7,862 bases of DNA from a virus (taxonomy: Duplodnaviria; Heunggongvirae; Uroviricota; Caudoviricetes), in the IMG/VR virus record IMGVR_UViG_2548876959_000005, positions 1 through 7,862 of that record; one strand, given 5' to 3'. This document shows positions 1 through 7,862 of the stretch, piece after piece. The translations under genes were made by a program, and so were the position numbers. Below the pieces are notes generated by a model. The model had not been told where the DNA came from, did not search any database, and saw only the letters and a program-made list of their open reading frames with translations. Each line of letters opens with the position of its first letter. Within the stretch, counting starts at the first letter, position 1.

Positions 1-65
1 TTAGTTACGAGCGACATTGCTCCGTGTATTCACTCGTTGGAATGAATACACAGTGCTTACTCGTA

Positions 66-536
66 CTAATAAAATACCCAATTTTCTGTTTCTTGGTTGT
101 GCCCAAAGTTATATTCAATATCTGGTGTTGATGTATCAATATTCTTCATCCCATCAACAAGAGTTGATACAACAGCCAAATCTTGTTTGATTCTCATTAA
201 ATGGTATTTCTTCCGGCGCAATAAACTCTCAATGGCAAGTTTCTTCGTTGGGAATGCAAAAGATCTTTCTGCATTTTTTGCTACTTTCTTAATTGCATAT
301 CTATTTCTCCTTTGTTTCCATTCCTGTAACCACTGATTTGGTGCTGGTTTAAAATTAACAATCCAATGCGCAGGAACCAACCATGCATAATGCTCTGTCT
401 GATGAAAAGCTATATATTGAAGTGCGAATATTTTTATCCCATCTTCTTCAACTGTCGCCTGGAATCTCCAGAAAACAGGCATTCCATCATGTTCAGTTTC
501 TGATTCAGGAAAAGGTACGCTCCATGATTTTGTCAT
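66..536 (-). CDS. Hypothetical 156-aa protein, second gene of the pL operon, immediately downstream of N
   Basis: Intact ORF on the minus strand. Its ATG (534-536) lies 8 nt after the N stop codon (545-547), and a GAGGTG ribosome-binding site overlaps that stop, so it is tightly coupled to N. No family recognised from the sequence; Trp/His-rich, soluble-looking. Confidence 0.6.
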   Translation of the reverse strand: MTKSWSVPFPESETEHDGMPVFWRFQATVEEDGIKIFALQYIAFHQTEHYAWLVPAHWIVNFKPAPNQWLQEWKQRRNRYAIKKVAKNAERSFAFPTKKLAIESLLRRKKYHLMRIKQDLAVVSTLVDGMKNIDTSTPDIEYNFGHNQETENWVFY

Positions 537-544
537 ATCTCACC

Positions 545-844
545 TCAAATAAGTGGTTTGCTGCCTAATTTCATTTTCTGGCGACCAACACAAGTCACAC
601 CCATTTCACTGCGTGGCTTGCGGTAGTAAATACGGTTCTGTTTACGCTCGACTTCTTCTGCCTTCTTGCAGCGAAGGCTTCCGAGTGATGCTGCTTTATC
701 TGCTCTGACGCAACCAGAGAGCTTTAGCGCAATTATTCGCGCCAGTCGCTGCTCTTGCATTGCCTGTTCACGTTGAGCCTGTCTGCGTGCTCTGCGGCGA
801 TTTCTGGCGTTATCGTCAGCCAGATATGTAATGACTACTGTCAT
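545..844 (-). CDS. N: Antitermination protein N (lambda/phi21 N family)
   Basis: 99-aa ORF with an N-terminal arginine-rich motif (NARNRRRARRQAQREQ) and a C-terminal segment (RIYYRKPRSEMGVTCVGRQKMKLGSKPLI) that matches the conserved C-terminus of lambdoid N proteins as I recall them. GGAGG ribosome-binding site 5-6 nt upstream of the ATG; sits downstream of pL/nutL. Confidence 0.85.
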   Translation of the reverse strand: MTVVITYLADDNARNRRRARRQAQREQAMQEQRLARIIALKLSGCVRADKAASLGSLRCKKAEEVERKQNRIYYRKPRSEMGVTCVGRQKMKLGSKPLI

Positions 845-951
845 GTTGACCTCCGATGATTGACTTTGGCGGTGACGCGCCGGGTGCTTATCTTCCGGTT
901 GCCGTCGTGCAGCTGCACTTCACGTCACCCCAAAGCCAACTACTCTTTGGT

Positions 952-993
952 TCCCGCATTTCGGCGGGACAATCCCATCAATGTTAAAGAGCC
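952..993 (-). promoter_or_regulatory. nutL: nutL: boxA-like element plus boxB hairpin (N utilisation site)
   Basis: Read on the minus strand: GCTCTTTAACA (boxA-like, plus coordinates 982-992), a 12-nt spacer, then TCCCGCCGAAATGCGGGA (plus 952-969; 6-bp stem, 6-nt loop). The hairpin is identical to the nutR boxB at 2650-2667. Located between pL and the N start, as in lambda. Confidence 0.65.
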
Positions 994-1038
994 TGCCAAT
1001 CTGTTCCGTTTGGCTACCAGCGTCCTGCTGATGGCTAA

Positions 1039-1125
1039 AGAATACTGTAGGTATTTTATTGTGTAAATACCCAAGGTATTTATTTTTGATGAAATAATGA
1101 TAAACAAATGAATACAAAGGATATT
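1039..1125 (-). promoter_or_regulatory. pL promoter with three OL operator-like palindromes
   Basis: Three AATAC-N5-(G/A)TATT sites at 1041-1055, 1066-1080 and 1111-1125. On the minus strand, -35 TTTACA (1062-1067) and -10 TATTCT (1039-1044) with a 17-bp spacer, overlapping sites 1 and 2. Orientation is toward N. Confidence 0.55.
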
Positions 1126-1211
1126 TATTTTTTCGGTATCTGCTTGTTCAGTGCTTTTTATGCGGGATATGTGAAGTGGATCCCGATAGCTATTGCTGCC
1201 GGGATTATGGG

Positions 1212-1580
1212 TTAGTCAGCGAAGGTTAAGACGAGAATTACCTTAATGATGTCTGCTACAACAGACACGGCCATAGATAAACCAAAGACGATCCAAGCCA
1301 TAGAGATGTCTTCACTACCATCGTATAGAGTTCCGTAATCACTGGTGTAAGGCGTAAATGTCGCGCCTTGATACAACAGGTATAAGCTTGATCCATAGAG
1401 GATAAATGCAGATATCCCTTGTATTGCTATGACCACTAGAATCATGAAACGAGCTGATCTATGCGCCCAAGCCTGGCTTATTTTTTCTGATAGAGATTTC
1501 GCAATAAAAGCATGCGCTAAGCCGTAAATTGTTGAGATTGCCAACATCCCAAAAAAGCTTGCTATAGCGGTTCCAACCAT
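1212..1580 (-). CDS. Small integral membrane protein (about 3 predicted transmembrane segments) co-transcribed downstream of cI; candidate exclusion or abortive-infection protein
   Basis: 122-aa ORF with three long hydrophobic stretches. GGGGGA ribosome-binding site 6 nt upstream of its ATG. Starts 19 nt after the cI stop, on the same strand, in the position lambda uses for rexA/rexB. Confidence 0.6.
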   Translation of the reverse strand: MVGTAIASFFGMLAISTIYGLAHAFIAKSLSEKISQAWAHRSARFMILVVIAIQGISAFILYGSSLYLLYQGATFTPYTSDYGTLYDGSEDISMAWIVFGLSMAVSVVADIIKVILVLTFAD

Positions 1581-1599
1581 AAGCGTCCCCCTTGCGTGA

Positions 1600-2316
1600 T
1601 CAAACCAGCCTTAGTTTTGTCTCAATTGCAACGCCTATAATCTTGCAGTTTCCATTGATTGGCACGAGAGGCCATGCAGGGTTAAGTCCCTTGAGGTATT
1701 TATTTCCGCCGTCGATTATCAGCTTCTTGAATGTTGCTTCGTTAGAGTCAGAAAGTTTTGCTATGACCAGGCTGCCGTTGATCGCCTCCCTTCCGGTATC
1801 GAAAAGAACGAATGTTCCCTCTGGAATGCTTAACCCAACCGGTGCCGTCATTGAATCACCTTCCACTTTAAGCCAGAACGCATTGCCTTGAATATGCGCG
1901 TCAGACTCAAGCCAAACATCTATGTCTTTAATGGTGTATGGTTCGCATGCTTCACACCACGAGCCAGCCTGGATACTGCTTAACACCGGATACCTCTTTC
2001 CTGCTCTGTATTCCCCTGCATACCTTACGTTGGCATCGCTCTTAAGGCTTTCTGCCTGTTCTGCAACCTTGGCAGCAATTGACTGGCTAAAATCAGCAAT
2101 TGAGACTTGCAACAAACGTGCAAAACCAGATGCGACCTCAACGTTTAGCGCGTTTCTGCCATTAAGATAATGCCCTACCGCTCCTTGGGTGATACCCAGT
2201 TCATCAGCGATTGAGTATTGGGTTATTCCCAATTCTTTCTTTTTTGACTCATACAAAGCCTTAAGCCGCTTAGCGTCTTCGAGCTGTTCTGTCGTCAGTG
2301 ATTTTTTATTTTCCAT
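1600..2316 (-). CDS. cI: cI-type phage repressor (N-terminal HTH, C-terminal LexA-like S24 autopeptidase domain)
   Basis: 238-aa ORF. N-terminus (LTTEQLEDAKRLKALYESKKKELGITQ) resembles lambda cI. Has the Ala-Gly cleavage site (SIQAGSW), the catalytic-serine motif EGDSMTAP and the lysine motif FKKLI. Divergent from cro across an operator region. Confidence 0.9.
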   Translation of the reverse strand: MENKKSLTTEQLEDAKRLKALYESKKKELGITQYSIADELGITQGAVGHYLNGRNALNVEVASGFARLLQVSIADFSQSIAAKVAEQAESLKSDANVRYAGEYRAGKRYPVLSSIQAGSWCEACEPYTIKDIDVWLESDAHIQGNAFWLKVEGDSMTAPVGLSIPEGTFVLFDTGREAINGSLVIAKLSDSNEATFKKLIIDGGNKYLKGLNPAWPLVPINGNCKIIGVAIETKLRLV

Positions 2317-2351
2317 AGCTTAATTCTAATAGCTAAGGTACTTAAACTAAA

Positions 2352-2393
2352 AATACCCTGAGTATTGATTGCTTTGAATACCTGTAGTATTCT
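2352..2393 (+). promoter_or_regulatory. OR operator sites with pR promoter
   Basis: Palindromes AATACCCTGAGTATT (2352-2366) and GAATACCTGTAGTATTC (2376-2392), same consensus as the OL sites. pR -35 TTGATT (2365-2370) and -10 TATTCT (2388-2393) with a 17-bp spacer. GGAGAG ribosome-binding site at 2412-2417 precedes cro. Confidence 0.6.
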
Positions 2394-2422
2394 TTGTTCA
2401 TGGTTAATAACGGAGAGTGCAT

Positions 2423-2617
2423 ATGATTCGAATGACACTTGCCGATTACGCCAAAATCCATGGACAGGCTAAAGCAGCCAGTGACTTTGGTGTAATCCAG
2501 TGCGCTATCAGCAAGGCCATTCTGGCAGGCCGTAACATTATGGTTACGGTAAAGCCTGATGGCAGTGTGATTGGAGAGGAAGTTCGTCCTTTCCCAAGCA
2601 ACAAGAAAAACAAATAG
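2423..2617 (+). CDS. cro: Cro repressor
   Basis: Small ORF divergent from cI. Sequence ([39 protein letters not shown]...PFPSNKK) is clearly related to lambda Cro. ATG at 2423 chosen for its 6-nt spacing from the ribosome-binding site; the GTG at 2417 in the ORF track is an alternative. Confidence 0.85.
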
Positions 2618-2623
2618 TAACAC

Positions 2624-2667
2624 CGCTCTTTAACAGTCATGGTCCTCATTCCCGCCGAAATGCGGGA
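2624..2667 (+). promoter_or_regulatory. nutR: nutR: boxA plus boxB hairpin
   Basis: CGCTCTTTAACA (2624-2635) closely matches the boxA consensus. After a 14-nt spacer comes TCCCGCCGAAATGCGGGA (2650-2667), a 6-bp stem with a 6-nt loop. Lies between cro and cII, as in lambda. Confidence 0.7.
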
Positions 2668-2674
2668 ATACAAC

Positions 2675-2700
2675 GCGCATAAGTTGATGCGCATAACTTC
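2675..2700 (+). terminator. Possible tR1-like hairpin or pause site downstream of nutR
   Basis: GCGCAT (2675-2680) pairs with ATGCGC (2687-2692) around a 6-nt loop, followed by a moderately T-rich stretch (ATAACTTCTTATTTGTT). Position matches lambda tR1; not a strong intrinsic terminator. Confidence 0.3.
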
Positions 2701-2725
2701 TTATTTGTTAAGGAAATACTTACAT

Positions 2726-3019
2726 ATGGTTCGTGCAAACAAACGCAACGAGGCTCTAAGAATCGAGAGTGCGTTGCTTAACAAAATCGCAATGCTTGGA
2801 ACTGAGAAGACAGCGGAAGCTGTGGGAGTTGATAAGTCGCAGATCAGCAGGTGGAAGAGGGACTGGATTCCAAAGTTCTCAATGCTGCTTGCTGTTCTTG
2901 AATGGGGTGTCGTCGACGACGACATGGCTCGATTGGCACGACAAGTTGCTTCGATTCTCACCAATAAAAAACGCCCGGCGGCAACCGAGCGTTCTGAACA
3001 AATCCAGATGGAATTTTAA
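2726..3019 (+). CDS. cII: Transcriptional activator cII
   Basis: 97-aa ORF (MVRANKRNEALRIESALLNK...ERSEQIQMEF) that I recall as nearly identical to lambda cII. AAGGA ribosome-binding site upstream. The track ORF beginning at 2639 is a spurious 5' extension that runs through nutR. Confidence 0.9.
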   Translation: MVRANKRNEALRIESALLNKIAMLGTEKTAEAVGVDKSQISRWKRDWIPKFSMLLAVLEWGVVDDDMARLARQVASILTNKKRPAATERSEQIQMEF

Positions 3020-3041
3020 TAACATCCAACGAGGTAATTAT

Positions 3042-3314
3042 ATGCGAAACAAAGGCTTTAATCCACCTGATACACACAAAGAAGCCAAGCGTTTGCGCTT
3101 CCTTCGTTCCATTGATGAAAGAACTCAAATCTCTTTTGTGAAAGTTGCCAGAACTGAGCTTCTGAAGGCTGAGGCGAGGGCGTTGCTCCCGTCTCTACCA
3201 AAAGAGGAGGGATATACGTTCATTCCAAACGCATTTCTGGAAAAGCTGCTCAAAGAAGACATATCCGTAAGTCAGTTTAACGATGTTCTTAAGGTCTTTC
3301 GTCAAGGCAGGTAG
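3042..3314 (+). CDS. Hypothetical 90-aa protein inserted between cII and O
   Basis: ORF with a GAGGT ribosome-binding site 7 nt before the ATG at 3042; its stop is 2 nt before the O start. Basic and helical-looking (MRNKGFNPPDTHKEAKRLRFLRSIDERTQ...). The track ORF from 2769 is an out-of-frame overlap with cII; the real start is probably 3042. Confidence 0.55.
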   Translation: MRNKGFNPPDTHKEAKRLRFLRSIDERTQISFVKVARTELLKAEARALLPSLPKEEGYTFIPNAFLEKLLKEDISVSQFNDVLKVFRQGR

Positions 3315-3316
3315 TT

Positions 3317-4264
3317 ATGAGCAATACAGCAAAAATCTACGATTTCAGCGCCGCACACGAGCGCAGGAGCAACAGGATGGAGAACCAGAAAACTGGTTAC
3401 ATTCCGTTGTACCGGAGCATTCTGAAACAGTCATGGGCGAAAGATGTTTATCTTCGCACCCTGTGGGAAAACCTTCTCCTGAATGCCGCCAGAAAGCCAT
3501 ACAAAGCGAATTTCAAAGGTCATGAATGGCATCTGCAACCCGGTCAACTGGTTGTGACAGCAGCTGATTTAGGTCTTCAGTTATGCGACAGACATGGCAA
3601 GCCAGCAAGCCGTGATCAGGTTGAGCGGATGCTTCAGGTTTTTGTGAAAGAGGGGATGATCTCCATTGATGGAGAGAAGCAAAAAGGTCGTGTGATAACC
3701 ATCACAAATTACCATGAATATGCTCAAAAAATGGACAATTTACCCGCACATGAAGCCGCACAAACAACCGCACATGATGCCGCACATGGCGAAGCCAGTA
3801 ATGGCGCGGCTTTCAGCGCACATGCCGCACATGAAAGCGCACATGAAGCCGCACAAACAACCGCACATCATGAACAAGAAGGTATTAACAAGAATATAAA
3901 TAATACCCCCCTACCCCCCAATGGGGGAGGCGATGGGCAGGTTAAACCTGAACGTCGCAAGGCAGAACGAATCGACTACGAATCCTTCCTGAACGCCTAC
4001 AACACCGAAGTCGGTGACAGACTGCCACACGCTGTTGCGGTCAACGAGAAACGCAAACGCCGCCTGAAGAAAATCATCCCGCAACTGAAAACGCCAAACG
4101 TGGACGGTTTCAGAGCGTATGTCAGGGCGTTTGTGCATCAGGCCAAGCCGTTTTACTTCGGAGACAACGACACGGGCTGGACAGCTGATTTTGATTACCT
4201 GCTGAGGGAAGATTCGTTAACTGGAGTACGGGAAGGGAAGTTTGCAGACAGGGGGATTGCATGA
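3317..4264 (+). CDS. O: Replication initiator protein, O-like (origin-binding N-terminal domain, repeat linker, C-terminal domain)
   Basis: 315-aa ORF starting MSNTAKI, like lambda O. Internal repeat-encoded linker ([10 protein letters not shown]...) contains the iterons. C-terminal motif [10 protein letters not shown]. Its stop overlaps the helicase start (ATGA at 4261-4264). Confidence 0.8.
3744..3905 (+). repeat. Putative replication origin inside the O gene: about 9 iteron copies followed by an AT-rich segment
   Basis: Tandem units of roughly 12 bp (CCGCACATGAAG / CCGCACAAACAA / CCGCACATGATG / CCGCACATGGCG) at 3744-3791, then five more at 3817-3872. Includes a 31-bp direct repeat (3745-3775 and 3839-3869). 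Followed by AT-rich AACAAGAAGGTATTAACAAGAATATAAATAATA (3873-3905) and then a C-run/G-run element. Confidence 0.65.
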
Positions 4265-5637
4265 GACAGGATATCGAAGCGAGCGTTATCGGTGGCCTGC
4301 TGATTGGTGGATTAACACCAACTGCCAGTGACGTTCTGGCAACGCTTGAGCCGGAAGCGTTTTCAATTCCGCTCTACCGGAAAGCCTTCGAGGTTATCCG
4401 CAAGCAGGCGCGAAACAGAAAACTAATCGACGCGATGATGGTTGCCGAGGCGTGCGGAGAGGAGCATTTCACGTCAATCCTGATGACCAGCAAAAACTGC
4501 CCGAGCGCCGCAAACCTGAAGGGATATGCCGGAATGGTCGCGGATAACTATCACCGCCGTCTGGTGCTGGAAATCATGGATGAAATGCGTGAACCAATTC
4601 AGAGCGGAACCATCGACGCATCGAGTCAGGCGATGGATGAGCTTGTAAAGCGTCTTTCAGCCATCAGAAAGCCCCGTGACGAGGTTAAACCGGTACGGTT
4701 AGGGGAAATCATTACTGACTACACTGACACGCTTGACAGGCGTCTGAGGAACGGAGAAGAGTCAGATACCCTGAAGACCGGAATCGAAGAACTTGATGCC
4801 ATCACCGGAGGGATGAACGCGGAAGACCTGGTGATAATCGCTGCTCGTCCTGGTATGGGGAAAACAGAACTGGCGCTGAAGATTGCCGAAGGCGTTGCAA
4901 GCCGCGTTATTCCTGGTTCTGACGTCCGGCGCGGAGTATTGATTTTCTCAATGGAAATGAGCGCATTGCAGATTGCAGAGCGAAGTATTGCCAACGCCGG
5001 GAGGATGTCGGTTAGCGTGCTGCGAAATCCTGCATCGATGGATGACGAAGGCTGGGCGCGTGTTGCTAACGGCATGAGTCAGCTTGCAGATTTGGATGTA
5101 TGGGTAGTCGATGCCTCGCGGTTATCGGTCGAAGAAATACGCTCAATCGCAGAACGGCATAAACAGGAAAATCCAAACCTGTCACTCATCATGGCGGATT
5201 ATCTTGGCCTGATTGAGAAGCCGAAAGCAGATCGCAACGACCTCGCAATTGCTCACATCTCCAGAAGCCTGAAGGCGATGGCGAAAGACCTGAAAACGCC
5301 AGTTATCTCCCTAAGTCAGCTTTCGCGCGATGTTGAGAAGCGACCAAATAAACGACCGACAAACGCAGATTTGCGTGATTCAGGAAGCATTGAACAGGAC
5401 GCAGACTCAATCATCATGCTCTATCGGGAAGCGGTATATGACGAGAACAGTAGCGCCGCGCCATTTGCTGAAATCATCGTGACGAAAAACCGTTTTGGCT
5501 CGCTTGGTACGGTTTACCAGCGGTTCTGTAACGGACACTTTGTGGCATGTGACCAGGATGAAGCCAGACAGATTTGCACAGCATCAAATGCACCTGCTGC
5601 GCGTGGCAGACGATATGCACAAGGGGCTGACGTATGA
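4261..5637 (+). CDS. Replicative DNA helicase, DnaB family (phage-encoded)
   Basis: 458-aa ORF with a Walker A motif (AARPGMGKT), a Walker B-like region (LIMADYLGL) and an [10 protein letters not shown] arginine-finger-type motif typical of DnaB-family helicases. Start overlaps the O stop. Confidence 0.9.
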
Positions 5638-5662
5638 CCATCTACATCACTGAGCTTGTAAC

Positions 5663-5694
5663 AGGCCTGCTGGTAATCGCAGGCCTTTTTATTT
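5663..5694 (+). terminator. Rho-independent terminator (tR2-like) after the replication genes
   Basis: Perfect 8-bp GC-rich stem AGGCCTGC (5663-5670) / GCAGGCCT (5679-5686) with an 8-nt loop, followed by TTTTTATTT. Confidence 0.65.
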
Positions 5695-5709
5695 GGGGGA
5701 GAGTAAATC

Positions 5710-5916
5710 GTGGTTGAGTTGATTTTTTCTGCATTGAGGATTCTCGGTGCCATGTGGATGGTGGCGACGTTCATTGTGGTTGCCAGCAGTTTTGTCCGGT
5801 TGGTAGGCGAAGGTAAAGACCTGGCGGGTGTGATTTTCGGTAGCATTCTCCTGTGGGTGATTATCGGTGTTGCGCCTGTCGCTGTAGCAAAAATGGCGTG
5901 GCGTTTTGTGAGTTGA
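5710..5916 (+). CDS. Small hydrophobic membrane protein (68 aa, about 2 transmembrane segments)
   Basis: ORF from a GTG start with a GGGAGAG ribosome-binding site 7 nt upstream; two long hydrophobic stretches. Lies just after the tR2-like terminator in the lambda ren position. Could also start at an internal ATG. Confidence 0.45.
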   Translation: MVELIFSALRILGAMWMVATFIVVASSFVRLVGEGKDLAGVIFGSILLWVIIGVAPVAVAKMAWRFVS

Positions 5917-5933
5917 ACTGAGGGTAAGTATCG

Positions 5934-6311
5934 ATGGACGAATCAAGAAAGCAGTTTGAAGAAAGTTGGTTGCGACGTGGGGGCGAATCTTCAGACCTTA
6001 TCCGTTACCCTGAAAATCACCATGAAATTGGCAGCGGTAATATTGGTGGTCAATACGTGATGGACGATGTTCAAGGCCACTGGCAAACGTGGCAGGCATC
6101 GCGAGCAGCTATTGAACTGGATATCGACTGGCCCGAGTCGAATGACGACTTCTGGAAAGATGGTGAAGAAGGCGCTTATGCGATGGGCTATATGGATGGG
6201 CGTGACAAAACGGTAATTGTAGTAATGAAAGCTATCAGAGCCGCTGGAATTAAAGAGAAGAATTTCGATGAAGCAAATATACATGCTTCGCAACGAAGCA
6301 ATCAGAAATAA
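5934..6311 (+). CDS. Hypothetical acidic 125-aa protein
   Basis: ORF with a GAGGG ribosome-binding site 8 nt upstream of the ATG. Acidic and Trp-rich (DIDWPESNDDFWKDGEEGAY). 3' end overlaps the ninB start by 44 nt. No family recognised. Confidence 0.55.
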   Translation: MDESRKQFEESWLRRGGESSDLIRYPENHHEIGSGNIGGQYVMDDVQGHWQTWQASRAAIELDIDWPESNDDFWKDGEEGAYAMGYMDGRDKTVIVVMKAIRAAGIKEKNFDEANIHASQRSNQK

Positions 6312-6714
6312 CGCTATAGACGCAATACTCTCACTTCCGATCGACGACAAGTCACCTCACGAAGTCCACGTCAAAGAACCTAAGCGAACCAAAGCGCAGA
6401 ACGACCGTATGTGGCCGATGCTTCAGGACGTTTCCCGTCAGGTGCTATGGCATGGTCAACGGCTGGCGCCGGAAGACTGGAAAGACCTGTTCACTGCCCT
6501 GTGGCTTAAGACCAAAAAATTGGAGCAACGAAGTGTGCCTGGTATCGATGGTGGTGTTGTCATGCTTGGCGTGCGTACCAGCAAAATGCGAAAGGCCAGC
6601 ATGACTGAGCTTATCGAAATCATGTTCTGGTTCGGCTCAGAGCGCAACGTGCGGTGGAGTGATGACTCCCGGCGAGAGTATGAATGGTCACAACGAAAAG
6701 GGAAGGCTGCATGA
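6268..6714 (+). CDS. ninB: NinB/Orf-family recombination protein
   Basis: 148-aa ORF that aligns by eye with lambda NinB over conserved blocks (QNDRMWPMLQDVSRQVLWHG, SERNVRWSDDSRREYEW). Its stop overlaps the next start (ATGA). Confidence 0.8.
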   Translation: MKQIYMLRNEAIRNNAIDAILSLPIDDKSPHEVHVKEPKRTKAQNDRMWPMLQDVSRQVLWHGQRLAPEDWKDLFTALWLKTKKLEQRSVPGIDGGVVMLGVRTSKMRKASMTELIEIMFWFGSERNVRWSDDSRREYEWSQRKGKAA

Positions 6715-7238
6715 CTATCAAATCAAATACGCCAGCACACGACAAGGACTGCTGGCAAACGCCGCTTTGGCTTTTTGATGCACTGGATATTGAGTTTGGA
6801 TTCTGGCTGGATTCGGCAGCGAGCGACAAAAATGCTCTGTGCGCTCACTGGCTAACTGAGGCTGACGACGCGCTAAATTCTGAGTGGATAAGCCACGGTG
6901 CAATCTGGAATAACCCACCGTACAGCAATATCAGGCCGTGGGTGGAAAAAGCCGCTGAGCAGTGCATACAACAGCGACAGACGGTAGTGATGCTTGTGCC
7001 AGAGGATATGTCTGTCGGATGGTTCAGCAAGGCTCTGGAGAGTGTTGACGAAGTTCGTATTATCACTGATGGACGGATTAATTTTATCGAACCATCGACA
7101 GGGCTGGAGAAGAAGGGAAACAGCAAAGGCTCCATGCTGCTGATTTGGCGACCGTTCATTAGTCCTCGACGGATGTTTACTACCGTATCCAAAGCGGCAT
7201 TGATGGCGATCGGGCAGGGCGTCAGGAGGGCGGCATGA
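6711..7238 (+). CDS. Phage DNA N6-adenine methyltransferase (Dam family)
   Basis: ORF with a [13 protein letters not shown] motif and the catalytic NPPYS motif typical of phage Dam-type methyltransferases. Start set at ATG 6711 (GGGAAGG ribosome-binding site, overlaps the ninB stop) rather than the upstream ATG 6684 in the track. Confidence 0.8.
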
Positions 7239-7411
7239 GACGACAGCGACGAAGTATCACCGACATCATCTGCGAAAACTGCAAATACCTTCCAACGAAA
7301 CGCTCCAGAAATAAACGCAAGCCAATCCCAAAAGAATCTGACGTAAAAACCTTCAACTACACGGCTCACCTGTGGGATATCCGGTGGCTAAGACATCGTG
7401 CGAGGAAATGA
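7235..7411 (+). CDS. ninE: NinE-like small basic protein
   Basis: 58-aa ORF not in the supplied track ([58 protein letters not shown]), translated by hand; matches my recollection of lambda NinE. ATG overlaps the methyltransferase stop (ATGA). Confidence 0.7.
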
Positions 7412-7413
7412 CA

Positions 7414-7773
7414 ATGGATTATTCACAGTTAAGTGATTTTGAAATTAACGTGGCGGTATTCGAAGCCATTCATAACGGATCACCGGATTACAAAGAAGGT
7501 GAGAATGGCGCGATGGTGTTTATCTCATTTGAGGGAGACATTGTAAACGGAGACGCAGTTGAAGTAGAAGTTGAGCGCGGATCCTTTAACCCATGCGCAA
7601 ACCCAGCAGACGCATGGCCGATTATTGAAAAATACAGGATTAGCATTATCAATCTCGATGAAGACGAGTGGGGTGCACGCGGTGTGGCCTACTGTAAATC
7701 TAAGCGAGCTATACATGAAAATCCCCTCCGCGCCGCCATGATTGTCTTTCTCATGATGCAGAGAATCCAATAA
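7414..7773 (+). CDS. Hypothetical nin-region protein (119 aa)
   Basis: ORF with a GAGGA ribosome-binding site 7 nt upstream of ATG 7414. ATG 7408, which overlaps the ninE stop, is an alternative; the track's 7372 start is unlikely. Acidic; its stop overlaps the ninF start (TAATG). Confidence 0.6.
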   Translation: MDYSQLSDFEINVAVFEAIHNGSPDYKEGENGAMVFISFEGDIVNGDAVEVEVERGSFNPCANPADAWPIIEKYRISIINLDEDEWGARGVAYCKSKRAIHENPLRAAMIVFLMMQRIQ

Positions 7774-7862
7774 TGCTTAGCCCATCCCAATCCCTTCAAT
7801 ACCAGAAAGAAAGCGTCGAGCGAGCTTTAACGTGCGCTAACTGCGGTCAGAAGCTGCATGTG
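7773..7862 (+). CDS. ninF: NinF-like protein, 5' portion (runs off the window end)
   Basis: Hand translation from ATG 7773 gives MLSPSQSLQYQKESVERALTCANCGQKLHV, which matches my recollection of the lambda NinF N-terminus (Cys-x-x-Cys zinc-ribbon-like start). Truncated by the window edge. Confidence 0.6.
   Translation, partial: MLSPSQSLQYQKESVERALTCANCGQKLHV

Follow-up and report, generated by a model that had tools for sequence, protein, structure and literature searches.

Where does replication start in a lambdoid prophage whose O-like initiator gene carries an array of repeats unlike the iterons of bacteriophage lambda? We addressed this question in a stretch of 7,862 nucleotides (nt) from a virus of the Caudoviricetes (IMG/VR record IMGVR_UViG_2548876959_000005, positions 1 to 7,862), hereafter the window, which represents the early-right region of a lambdoid prophage as judged by its gene content and Pfam matches. 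Comparison of the O-like gene with its relatives indicated that positions 3744–3930 are very probably the replication origin of this prophage, embedded in the gene for its own initiator. The parts of the candidate origin, of the initiator and of the helicase that accompanies it are listed here, with lengths in base pairs (bp) or amino acids (aa).

3317–4264, plus strand: O-like replication initiator gene, 315 aa (Pfam Phage_rep_O, phrog_345), with the putative origin inside it
3377–3730, plus strand: predicted N-terminal winged helix-turn-helix domain, aa 21–138 (AlphaFold2 model)
3744–3791, plus strand: iteron block 1, four 12-bp head-to-tail units, each CCGCACAT plus 4 variable nt
3792–3815, plus strand: central spacer with the conserved motif CCAGTAATGGCGCGGC (3795–3810)
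3816–3824, plus strand: partial 9-bp copy GCGCACATG, at a position that is spacer in relatives
3825–3872, plus strand: iteron block 2, four 12-bp units, the last of which (CCGCACATCATG) abuts the AT-rich tract
3873–3905: AT-rich tract, 18% GC with an A-rich top strand, presumed DNA unwinding element
3910–3930: C-run/G-run inverted repeat (CCC.CCCCC / GGGGGAGG), a right arm of the P22 type
3906–4264, plus strand: P22 gp18-type C-terminal domain (by DNA identity), presumed to recruit the helicase
4261–5637, plus strand: DnaB-like replicative helicase gene (Pfam DnaB_C and DnaB), analogue of P22 gene 12 and partner of the initiator

Direct repeats are clustered within the O coding sequence

The sequence SCGCACA was present in 11 copies in the window relative to 2.5 expected, a number that none of 200 shuffles reached, and nine plus-strand copies of (C/G)CGCACA started at 3744, 3756, 3768 and 3780 and at 3816, 3825, 3837, 3849 and 3861. 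Tandem Repeats Finder delimited two period-12 arrays (3744–3788 and 3825–3868), and the two repeat blocks were 97% identical over 35 nt in a repeat search. An earlier note on this DNA had claimed an iteron array in the O coding sequence, and the shuffles and Tandem Repeats Finder bear this out, as the copies are far above chance and clustered. No inverted repeats were found within or between the 12-bp units, which are direct repeats without dyad symmetry.

The array (3744–3872) corresponds to aa 143–185 of the O-like protein and sits in the linker between the N-terminal domain (N-domain), the folded part of which stops at ~aa 139, and the C-terminal domain (C-domain), homology to which begins at ~aa 192–196. 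Translation confirmed that the repeats share the reading frame of O and specify a repetitive linker, as the earlier note had stated; the peptide is rich in His and Ala (AH-rich). A 61-aa open reading frame (ORF) at 3714–3899, which had been set aside as a frame artefact, is the +1 frame of the same repeat DNA, and this frame appeared in the protein database only as frameshifted fusions to the O N-domain (P0018, P0045), in keeping with that judgement.

The O gene was 98–99% identical to those of CUS-3, HF4s, Gally, JEP4, TL-2011a and ~48 Stx2a-converting phages, and the CUS-3 genome (40 kb) contained a single cluster of unit cores. A second copy of the array, for which BLAST matches at two places per record had made a candidate, was rejected: the two places reflect block 1 matching block 2, and CUS-3 has one cluster. 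An isolated CCGCACA core at 3351–3357, near the 5' end of O (codons A-A-H), is also kept in CUS-3 and may represent either an additional site for O or a chance match, one extra copy being within expectation. There was no DnaA box in the array or the AT-rich tract, the sole TTWTNCACA match in the window being at 7419, and no GATC between 3662 and 5229, hence none in the array or AT tract. GATC was scarce throughout the window (15 sites relative to 34 ± 5 expected, with 15 or more in 200 of 200 shuffles), a scarcity that coexists with a phage-encoded Dam-family methyltransferase.

Two blocks of units are conserved among relatives

An alignment-based genome scan with the N-domain gave 71 loci from many Enterobacterales genera, with N-domain identities ranging from 88% to 42%; a single-protein scan of viral contigs gave only copies that were at least 99% identical, which are usable for polymorphism, not for divergence. 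All complete loci shared one layout, consisting of three to four 12-bp units, a 33-nt spacer, three to four further units, CATGAACAAGAA and an AT-rich tract, and the last unit of block 2 together with the following GAACAAGAA (3872–3880) was kept in all locus groups. The span of the array was quantised, at 129 nt where there are 4+4 units and at 105 nt where there are 3+3, and ~60 prophages entered the comparison that defines this canonical array. Since the window spans 129 nt, like 4+4 relatives with a 33-nt spacer, its ninth copy occupies spacer DNA.

Close relatives were uniform in this respect, with an array length of 129 nt in 75 of 75. Among 44 distinct arrays from close relatives, variants per site amounted to 4.89 in the partial copy, 3.03 at unit positions 9–12, 1.21 in the remaining spacer and 0.22 in the unit cores, which thus carried ~14-fold fewer variants than positions 9–12. 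The 9-bp partial copy was the most polymorphic segment of the array and reads GCGTACATG in CUS-3. Because it is so variable and lies in the spacer position, the functional array is best read, on these comparisons, as 4+4 units, and the partial copy at 3816–3824 is probably not a functional iteron. The earlier count of about nine copies therefore holds for the matches, but these comprise eight conserved units plus one unconstrained partial copy; block 2, which had been placed from 3817, in fact begins one nucleotide earlier, at 3816, with a copy of just 9 bp.

Several database records were irregular at this locus. Most N-domain relatives in the protein database (P0001–P0073) were 'partial' proteins of ~150–250 aa that end in or just past the repeats, or were frameshifted calls, so that short-read assemblies and gene callers evidently break at the array. 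Enterobacterial-type O genes also occurred in ill-matched records, namely a Martelella alba contig (L144), a Bacillota metagenome-assembled genome (MAG; L136) and OR850084.1, a 2692-bp record named 'Staphylococcus phage SA 1298 Kay'; these taxon labels probably reflect contamination or mis-binning. The whole module of block plus spacer was triplicated in L144, giving an array span of 278 nt. Decayed arrays were seen in Xenorhabdus ehlersii (L091), which retains block 1 and the spacer followed by unrelated DNA, and in a Symbiopectobacterium MAG (L139), where roughly three units are present and the spacer is missing, as though lost through recombination between the blocks.

Constraint on bases and on the encoded peptide

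The repeats are in frame, encode an AH-rich peptide between two folded domains and fall outside the confidently modelled part of O, and they might accordingly be merely a repetitive, low-complexity protein linker that arose by slippage and has no function as DNA. Units were defined by register alone, from core-independent anchors, and logos built from regex-defined units were rejected as circular. In the CCGCACAT group (group 1, 17 loci), positions 2–6 read CGCAC in 101–102 of 102 units, and positions 9–12 carried only 0.1–0.5 bits. Pairwise identity at four-fold third positions in the adjoining N-domain was 46% in these 17 loci, relative to identity in 680 of 680 comparisons for the Ala-codon third position inside the units. 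The codon that spans the unit start encoded P, A, G, T, S or C, yet always ended in (C/G)C. Distant relatives kept the 12-bp periodic layout with unrelated peptides (e.g. PDEPSEEP and EVTNEVTNQ), the 11-bp units of phage L are read in three different frames, and the invariant 129-nt length in close relatives indicates that the array is not prone to slippage.

Overall, the constraint acts on the DNA and not on the protein, as amino acids vary and bases are fixed. Fixed bases with varying peptides, together with the three reading frames in phage L, effectively exclude a linker without DNA function, an explanation that we consider extremely unlikely.

Unit cores and the predicted recognition helix of O vary together

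In the AlphaFold2 model, the predicted local distance difference test score (pLDDT) was ~90 over residues 31–135, and the N-domain comprised helices at 82–88 and 99–111 followed by a beta-hairpin wing at 115–129 (strands 115–120 and 124–129). The predicted recognition helix is aa 99–111 (3611–3649), and residues 82 and 100 (Ala82, codon 3560–3562; Asp100, codon 3614–3616) form the N-termini of the two helices of the modelled helix-turn-helix. The best Foldseek matches in the PDB were generic winged-helix proteins (CodY, MarR, ArsR/RosR) with weak E-values; no close solved relative of the N-domain was found by this search or by a sequence search of solved structures, and generic matches of this kind are no guide to initiator stoichiometry.

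A second large group of loci carried units of the form CCGCGCAT or CCGAGCAT, the change from GCA to GCG between the groups being synonymous. Across 53 loci, S-R-D was found with CGCAC in 22 and S-R-H with CG(C/A)GC in 31, with zero exceptions; residue 100 of O was accordingly Asp in 22 of 22 CGCAC loci and His in 31 of 31 CG(C/A)GC (CGCGC or CGAGC) loci, and residue 82 likewise separated the two groups. A tree of N-domains built without columns 82 and 100 contained at least three independent Asp/His switches, each of which coincided with an A/G switch in the unit. Locus L119, for example, is 85% identical to the Asp/A locus L003, yet carries His and G. N-domains at 42–49% identity had different cores in the same layout (CCGATGAACC, CCGATACAC, CCGTCCAACC and AGGTAACAAA). 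The pairing of one residue with one base at unit position 5 (Asp100 with A, His100 with G) has thus been replicated naturally, and the presence of many iteron specificities in one layout makes this family suited to the study of initiator–origin divergence. The earlier note had suggested a distinct O–ori specificity, and the comparison supports this: the units are 12-bp direct repeats without dyad symmetry, compared to the 18-bp dyad iterons of lambda.

These data also bear on whether the units could be bound not by O but by some other protein, for example a factor of the host or a further regulator of the phage. The reader of the central spacer motif, should it have one, is evidently not the specificity determinant of O, and this counts in favour of such an explanation. 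However, the unit core switched with residue 100 of the O recognition helix at least three times independently, it changes completely with distant N-domains though the host genera overlap, and at mosaic junctions array and N-domain have in every case stayed together. Recognition of the units by a non-O protein is therefore highly unlikely.

The array adjoins an AT-rich tract and an exchangeable right arm

The 33-bp AT-rich tract that the earlier note had seen after the repeats could be placed at 3873–3905, the stability minimum of the gene: of the 915 33-mers of O it ranked first for instability, and only one 33-mer in the whole window was less stable (free energy, dG, −33.4 relative to a mean of −44.6 with a standard deviation of 3.5). 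The C-run/G-run element beside it is real as well, with C6 at 3906–3911, C6 at 3914–3919 and G5 at 3923–3927. The hairpin at 3910–3930 was calculated at −6.6 kcal/mol, and the same element is found in P22, HK446 and ST104. Across 20 right-arm types, an inverted repeat recurred on the right side of the AT tract, unrelated in sequence from type to type; stems averaged 6.25 bp, relative to 3.57 bp after shuffling. A further 7-bp inverted repeat, GGTATTA/TAATACC, brackets the core of the AT tract (3881–3907; fold z of −2.8 for 3873–3935); it was rejected as a functional element, as it spans a mosaic junction and is absent from L121, and is probably coincidental.

BLAST split the O gene at ~3890–3905, within the AT tract or at its right edge, with matches of the HK446/P22 type beginning at window position 3890 and those of the Klebsiella/Yersinia type ending at ~3900. 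The left part (N-domain, array and AT tract) matched Klebsiella and Yersinia phages at 76–80%. The right part consists of the hairpin and C-domain of the HK446/ST104/phage 2851/P22 type, and the DNA encoding the C-domain was 95–97% identical to HK446, ST104, phage 2851 and BTP1 and 67% identical to P22 gene 18. On these comparisons, the N-domain, array and AT tract travel as one module. In the window this module is joined to a P22-type hairpin, a gp18-type C-domain and a DnaB-like helicase; the alternative joint is to a homologue of the lambda ori palindrome, a lambda-type C-domain and a P-like gene. C-domain and partner sorted together without cross-combinations, lambda-type C-domains occurring with P-like genes in 51 of 51 cases and P22-type C-domains with DnaB-like helicases in 5 of 5. 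Where a relative has the lambda-type C-domain, an A-rich tract and then the palindrome homologue TTCGTCAGAGAATTCTGGCGAATCCTCTGAC come after the array, and the array thus sits exactly where the four annotated iterons of lambda sit.

O might bind the array and yet use it mainly as an autoregulatory, copy-control or incompatibility element, with replication starting elsewhere. Iterons of plasmids and of lambda are established to have such secondary roles. For lambda, an inhibition phenotype has been described (PMC3349717). This alternative is nevertheless unlikely, given that the least stable tract of the gene and an inverted repeat follow the array directly, that in relatives the array is fused to a homologue of the experimentally defined right arm of lambda ori, and that CUS-3 has no second cluster of cores.

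The region could also act as RNA or single-stranded structure, for instance through an antisense transcript or, within the O mRNA, as a terminator or regulatory hairpin, and a weak terminator-like match was indeed present on the minus strand (3854–3837). However, the array folded no better than shuffles on either strand (z of −1.5 and −0.65), no Rfam family was matched, there was no promoter-like site over the array, terminator-like sites numbered 2 relative to 1.8 expected, and direct repeats cannot pair with each other. We regard the probability of an RNA function as negligible.

A probable replication origin within its own initiator gene

The position of the array is equivalent to that of the annotated iterons of lambda and of the annotated rep_origin of P22, and the lambdoid ori layout that the earlier note had recognised, with iterons in the linker and an unwinding region next to them, held in every element by comparison. 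In the general lambdoid scheme, O binds the iterons, an O-some forms, the AT-rich tract opens and the helicase is recruited via the C-terminal domain (PMC7466680). For the window, we infer binding, unwinding, helicase loading and stoichiometry as follows. The winged-helix N-domain of the O-like protein would bind the 12-bp CCGCACAT units, arranged as two blocks of four around a conserved spacer, with Asp100 at the start of the recognition helix reading the A at unit position 5. Multiple bound initiators would form a complex resembling the O-some, which would destabilise the adjacent AT-rich tract at 3873–3905, and the gp18-type C-domain could then recruit the phage's own DnaB-like helicase (4261–5637) to the opened DNA. 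Because the units lack dyad symmetry, each is likely to be bound by one winged-helix monomer and not, as in a dimer-per-iteron arrangement, by two.

Several points weigh against this assignment. Dyad symmetry, a feature of the iterons of lambda, P22 and HK446, is absent from the units, and the one-dimer-per-iteron model of lambda O is therefore not directly transferable. Codon 100 is only ~130 nt from the array, and recombinational linkage could account for part of the association between Asp/His and A/G; this caveat is countered by the finding that the association peaks at residues 82 and 100 and does not rise towards the array. The hairpin at 3910–3930 is not significant alone, as 17 of 200 shuffles folded as well, and in the right-arm stem test the stem length of the window was equalled in 9% of shuffles. 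The reference origins of P22 and phage L are themselves annotated by similarity or as 'putative', and we found no literature on binding or initiation in this type of replicon.

A conserved motif in the central spacer

The earlier note did not mention the motif CCAGTAATGGCGCGGC (3795–3810) in the central spacer, a motif that was conserved across 62 loci, even between groups that have no iteron core in common. Third positions of four-fold codons within it varied less than adjacent second codon positions, and its extended consensus, CCAGT-NN-TG-N-CG-N-GGC-TTNCAG, covers ~18–24 nt. As the 16-mer CCAGTAATG(A/G)CGCGGC, the motif also occurred in L160 (735–750), L166, L163, L171, L183, L233 and L283 (450–475).

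A probe with the exact motif matched at least 119 viral stretches, ~35 of which look like chance matches in ordinary coding DNA and the rest of which are origin-like contexts. These contexts included O genes of the L type and of the window type, further O-like classes (one with lambda-style dyad iterons), non-coding origins beside D5/P4-type primase-helicases, another beside a Prim-Pol/PriCT-2 protein, and a RepB-family phage-plasmid in which the motif lies between iterons and GATC-rich 13-mer-like repeats with a DnaA box; a variant form was present in Chi-like phages. The motif was always placed between iterons or between iterons and the unwinding element, with its 3' side usually towards the AT-rich side. 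A plasmid search with a 32-nt motif query was uninformative, the query being too stringent, and a literature search for CCAGTAATG returned only unrelated primer sequences. By eye, we know of no host-factor consensus that the motif matches.

The motif, shared by phage and phage-plasmid replicons of enterobacteria whose initiators are unrelated, is perhaps a previously unrecognised, initiator-independent element of the origin core, at which a host factor common to these replicons would bind or priming or loading would occur at a defined position; this is a tentative reading that we hold with some doubt. Its bottom strand carries CTG, the DnaG start trinucleotide, and priming by DnaG at this CTG is speculation. 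The motif is thus a lead and not a finding; if functional, it would point to a component of origin firing that mobile elements of enterobacteria share and that has gone unrecognised. The Asp/His–A/G switch and this shared motif are the parts worth following up, the origin itself being expected biology.

Genomic setting

Pfam Phage_rep_O (PF04492) matched aa 20–132 of the O-like protein (E-value (E) of 3e-15; 56.9 bits relative to a cut-off of 28.7), and the protein matched phrog_345, 'replication initiation O-like', with an E of 6e-100. The helicase gene that follows (4261–5637) matched Pfam DnaB_C (E 7e-79) and DnaB (E 3e-13), and its product was 99% identical to the HK446 helicase and 90% identical to P22 gp12. 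The inspected records of near-identical phages carried no origin annotation at the O locus. The remaining genes of the window are listed here.

1600–2316, minus strand: cI-like repressor
2417–2617: cro
2639–3019: cII
3042–3314, plus strand: 90-aa ORF in the cII–O interval, with an end-to-end match to phrog_2519, a family of unknown function (E 2e-57)
6684–7238: Dam-family methyltransferase
After the helicase gene: NinB, the Dam methylase and NinX

The Pfam Phage_CII profile matched the cII ORF, which is listed at 126 aa, from residue 30 only, and the true start of cII is probably a downstream ATG. The stretch equivalent to the 90-aa ORF carries no annotation in the CUS-3 record; this ORF is probably a real small gene.

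Comparison with known systems

We found no description of CCGCACAT-type iterons or of CUS-3 iterons in the literature, and searchable papers on the replication types of Stx phages mentioned no origin or iterons for non-lambda types. Replication proteins have served to divide Stx2a phages into subtypes, with which toxin yield correlates (PMC4645166). The replication module described here is that of CUS-3, HF4s, TL-2011a and ~48 sequenced Stx2a-converting phages, and locating its origin provides defined targets with which to study or block the replication of CUS-3/Stx2a-type phages.

Iteron plasmids (Rep_3/RepB, F, P1, R6K and pPS10) share with the window head-to-tail repeats, winged-helix initiators and an adjoining AT-rich unwinding element, and monomer binding to direct repeats is established in this class. 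In contrast, plasmid iterons are ~19–22 bp long, lie outside the rep gene and are usually accompanied by DnaA boxes and GATC-rich 13-mers, whereas the candidate origin of the window is inside the coding sequence of its initiator, with neither a DnaA box nor GATC in the array or AT tract.

Lambda, P22 and phage L carry different iterons inside the coding regions of O or gene 18 (Zaworski et al. 2021, PMC8022706). Phage L, ST64T, Sf6 (gp43), HK75 and HK629 resemble the window in having a gene 18 with a putative ori, inside a distantly homologous initiator gene that is followed by a DnaB-like helicase; HK75, HK629 and mEpX2 are of the phage L type. The initiator of phage L was 22% identical to that of the window (E 6e-10). 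Its layout comprises three repeats, a spacer with CCAGTAATG(A/G)CGCGGC, three repeats, an AT-rich tract and an inverted repeat, and the window at 3744–3930 likewise has two blocks of short repeats flanking a CCAGTAATGRCGCGGC spacer, an AT tract and an inverted repeat (compared to L160 700–840). The two differ in their units, which in phage L read TGTCCAACGGA with a period of 11, in three frames and a 3+3 arrangement, and in the window CCGCACAT plus N4 with a period of 12 and a 4+4 arrangement. The ori of phage L is annotated as putative, and its six 11-bp repeats have been called 'likely the origin' (PMC8022706); that description gives the six repeats and leaves the two-block layout and the shared central motif unmentioned.

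P22, HK446, HK97 and ST104 share the C5-N4-G5 hairpin, the gp18-type C-domain and the DnaB-like helicase with the window (90–99% protein identity), and the annotated rep_origin of P22 in gene 18 maps onto window positions ~3786–3930. Unlike the window, P22 and HK446 have another type of N-domain and dyad iterons of ~17–18 bp (GGTAAAACATTTACC in P22 and TTAGCTAAAACAGCTAA in HK446), with no central motif.

As in lambda itself, the initiator gene harbours the candidate origin, which occupies the linker joining a DNA-binding N-domain to a partner-binding C-domain and shows the same order of repeat array, AT-rich tract and, on the right, a putative inverted repeat. Both systems have a Phage_rep_O initiator whose N-domain and repeats make up a specificity module, and relatives of the window's N-domain are fused to direct homologues of the lambda AT tract, palindrome, C-domain and P. 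Lambda differs in having four 18-bp iterons with internal dyad symmetry (TCCCTCAAAACGAGGGA), which are bound by O dimers (PMC7466680), as opposed to the eight 12-bp head-to-tail units of the window, in lacking the conserved 33-nt spacer that splits these units 4+4, and in using P as partner in place of a DnaB-like helicase. Overall, the candidate origin follows the usual lambdoid plan, with repeats of a sequence not described before and a conserved motif at its centre.

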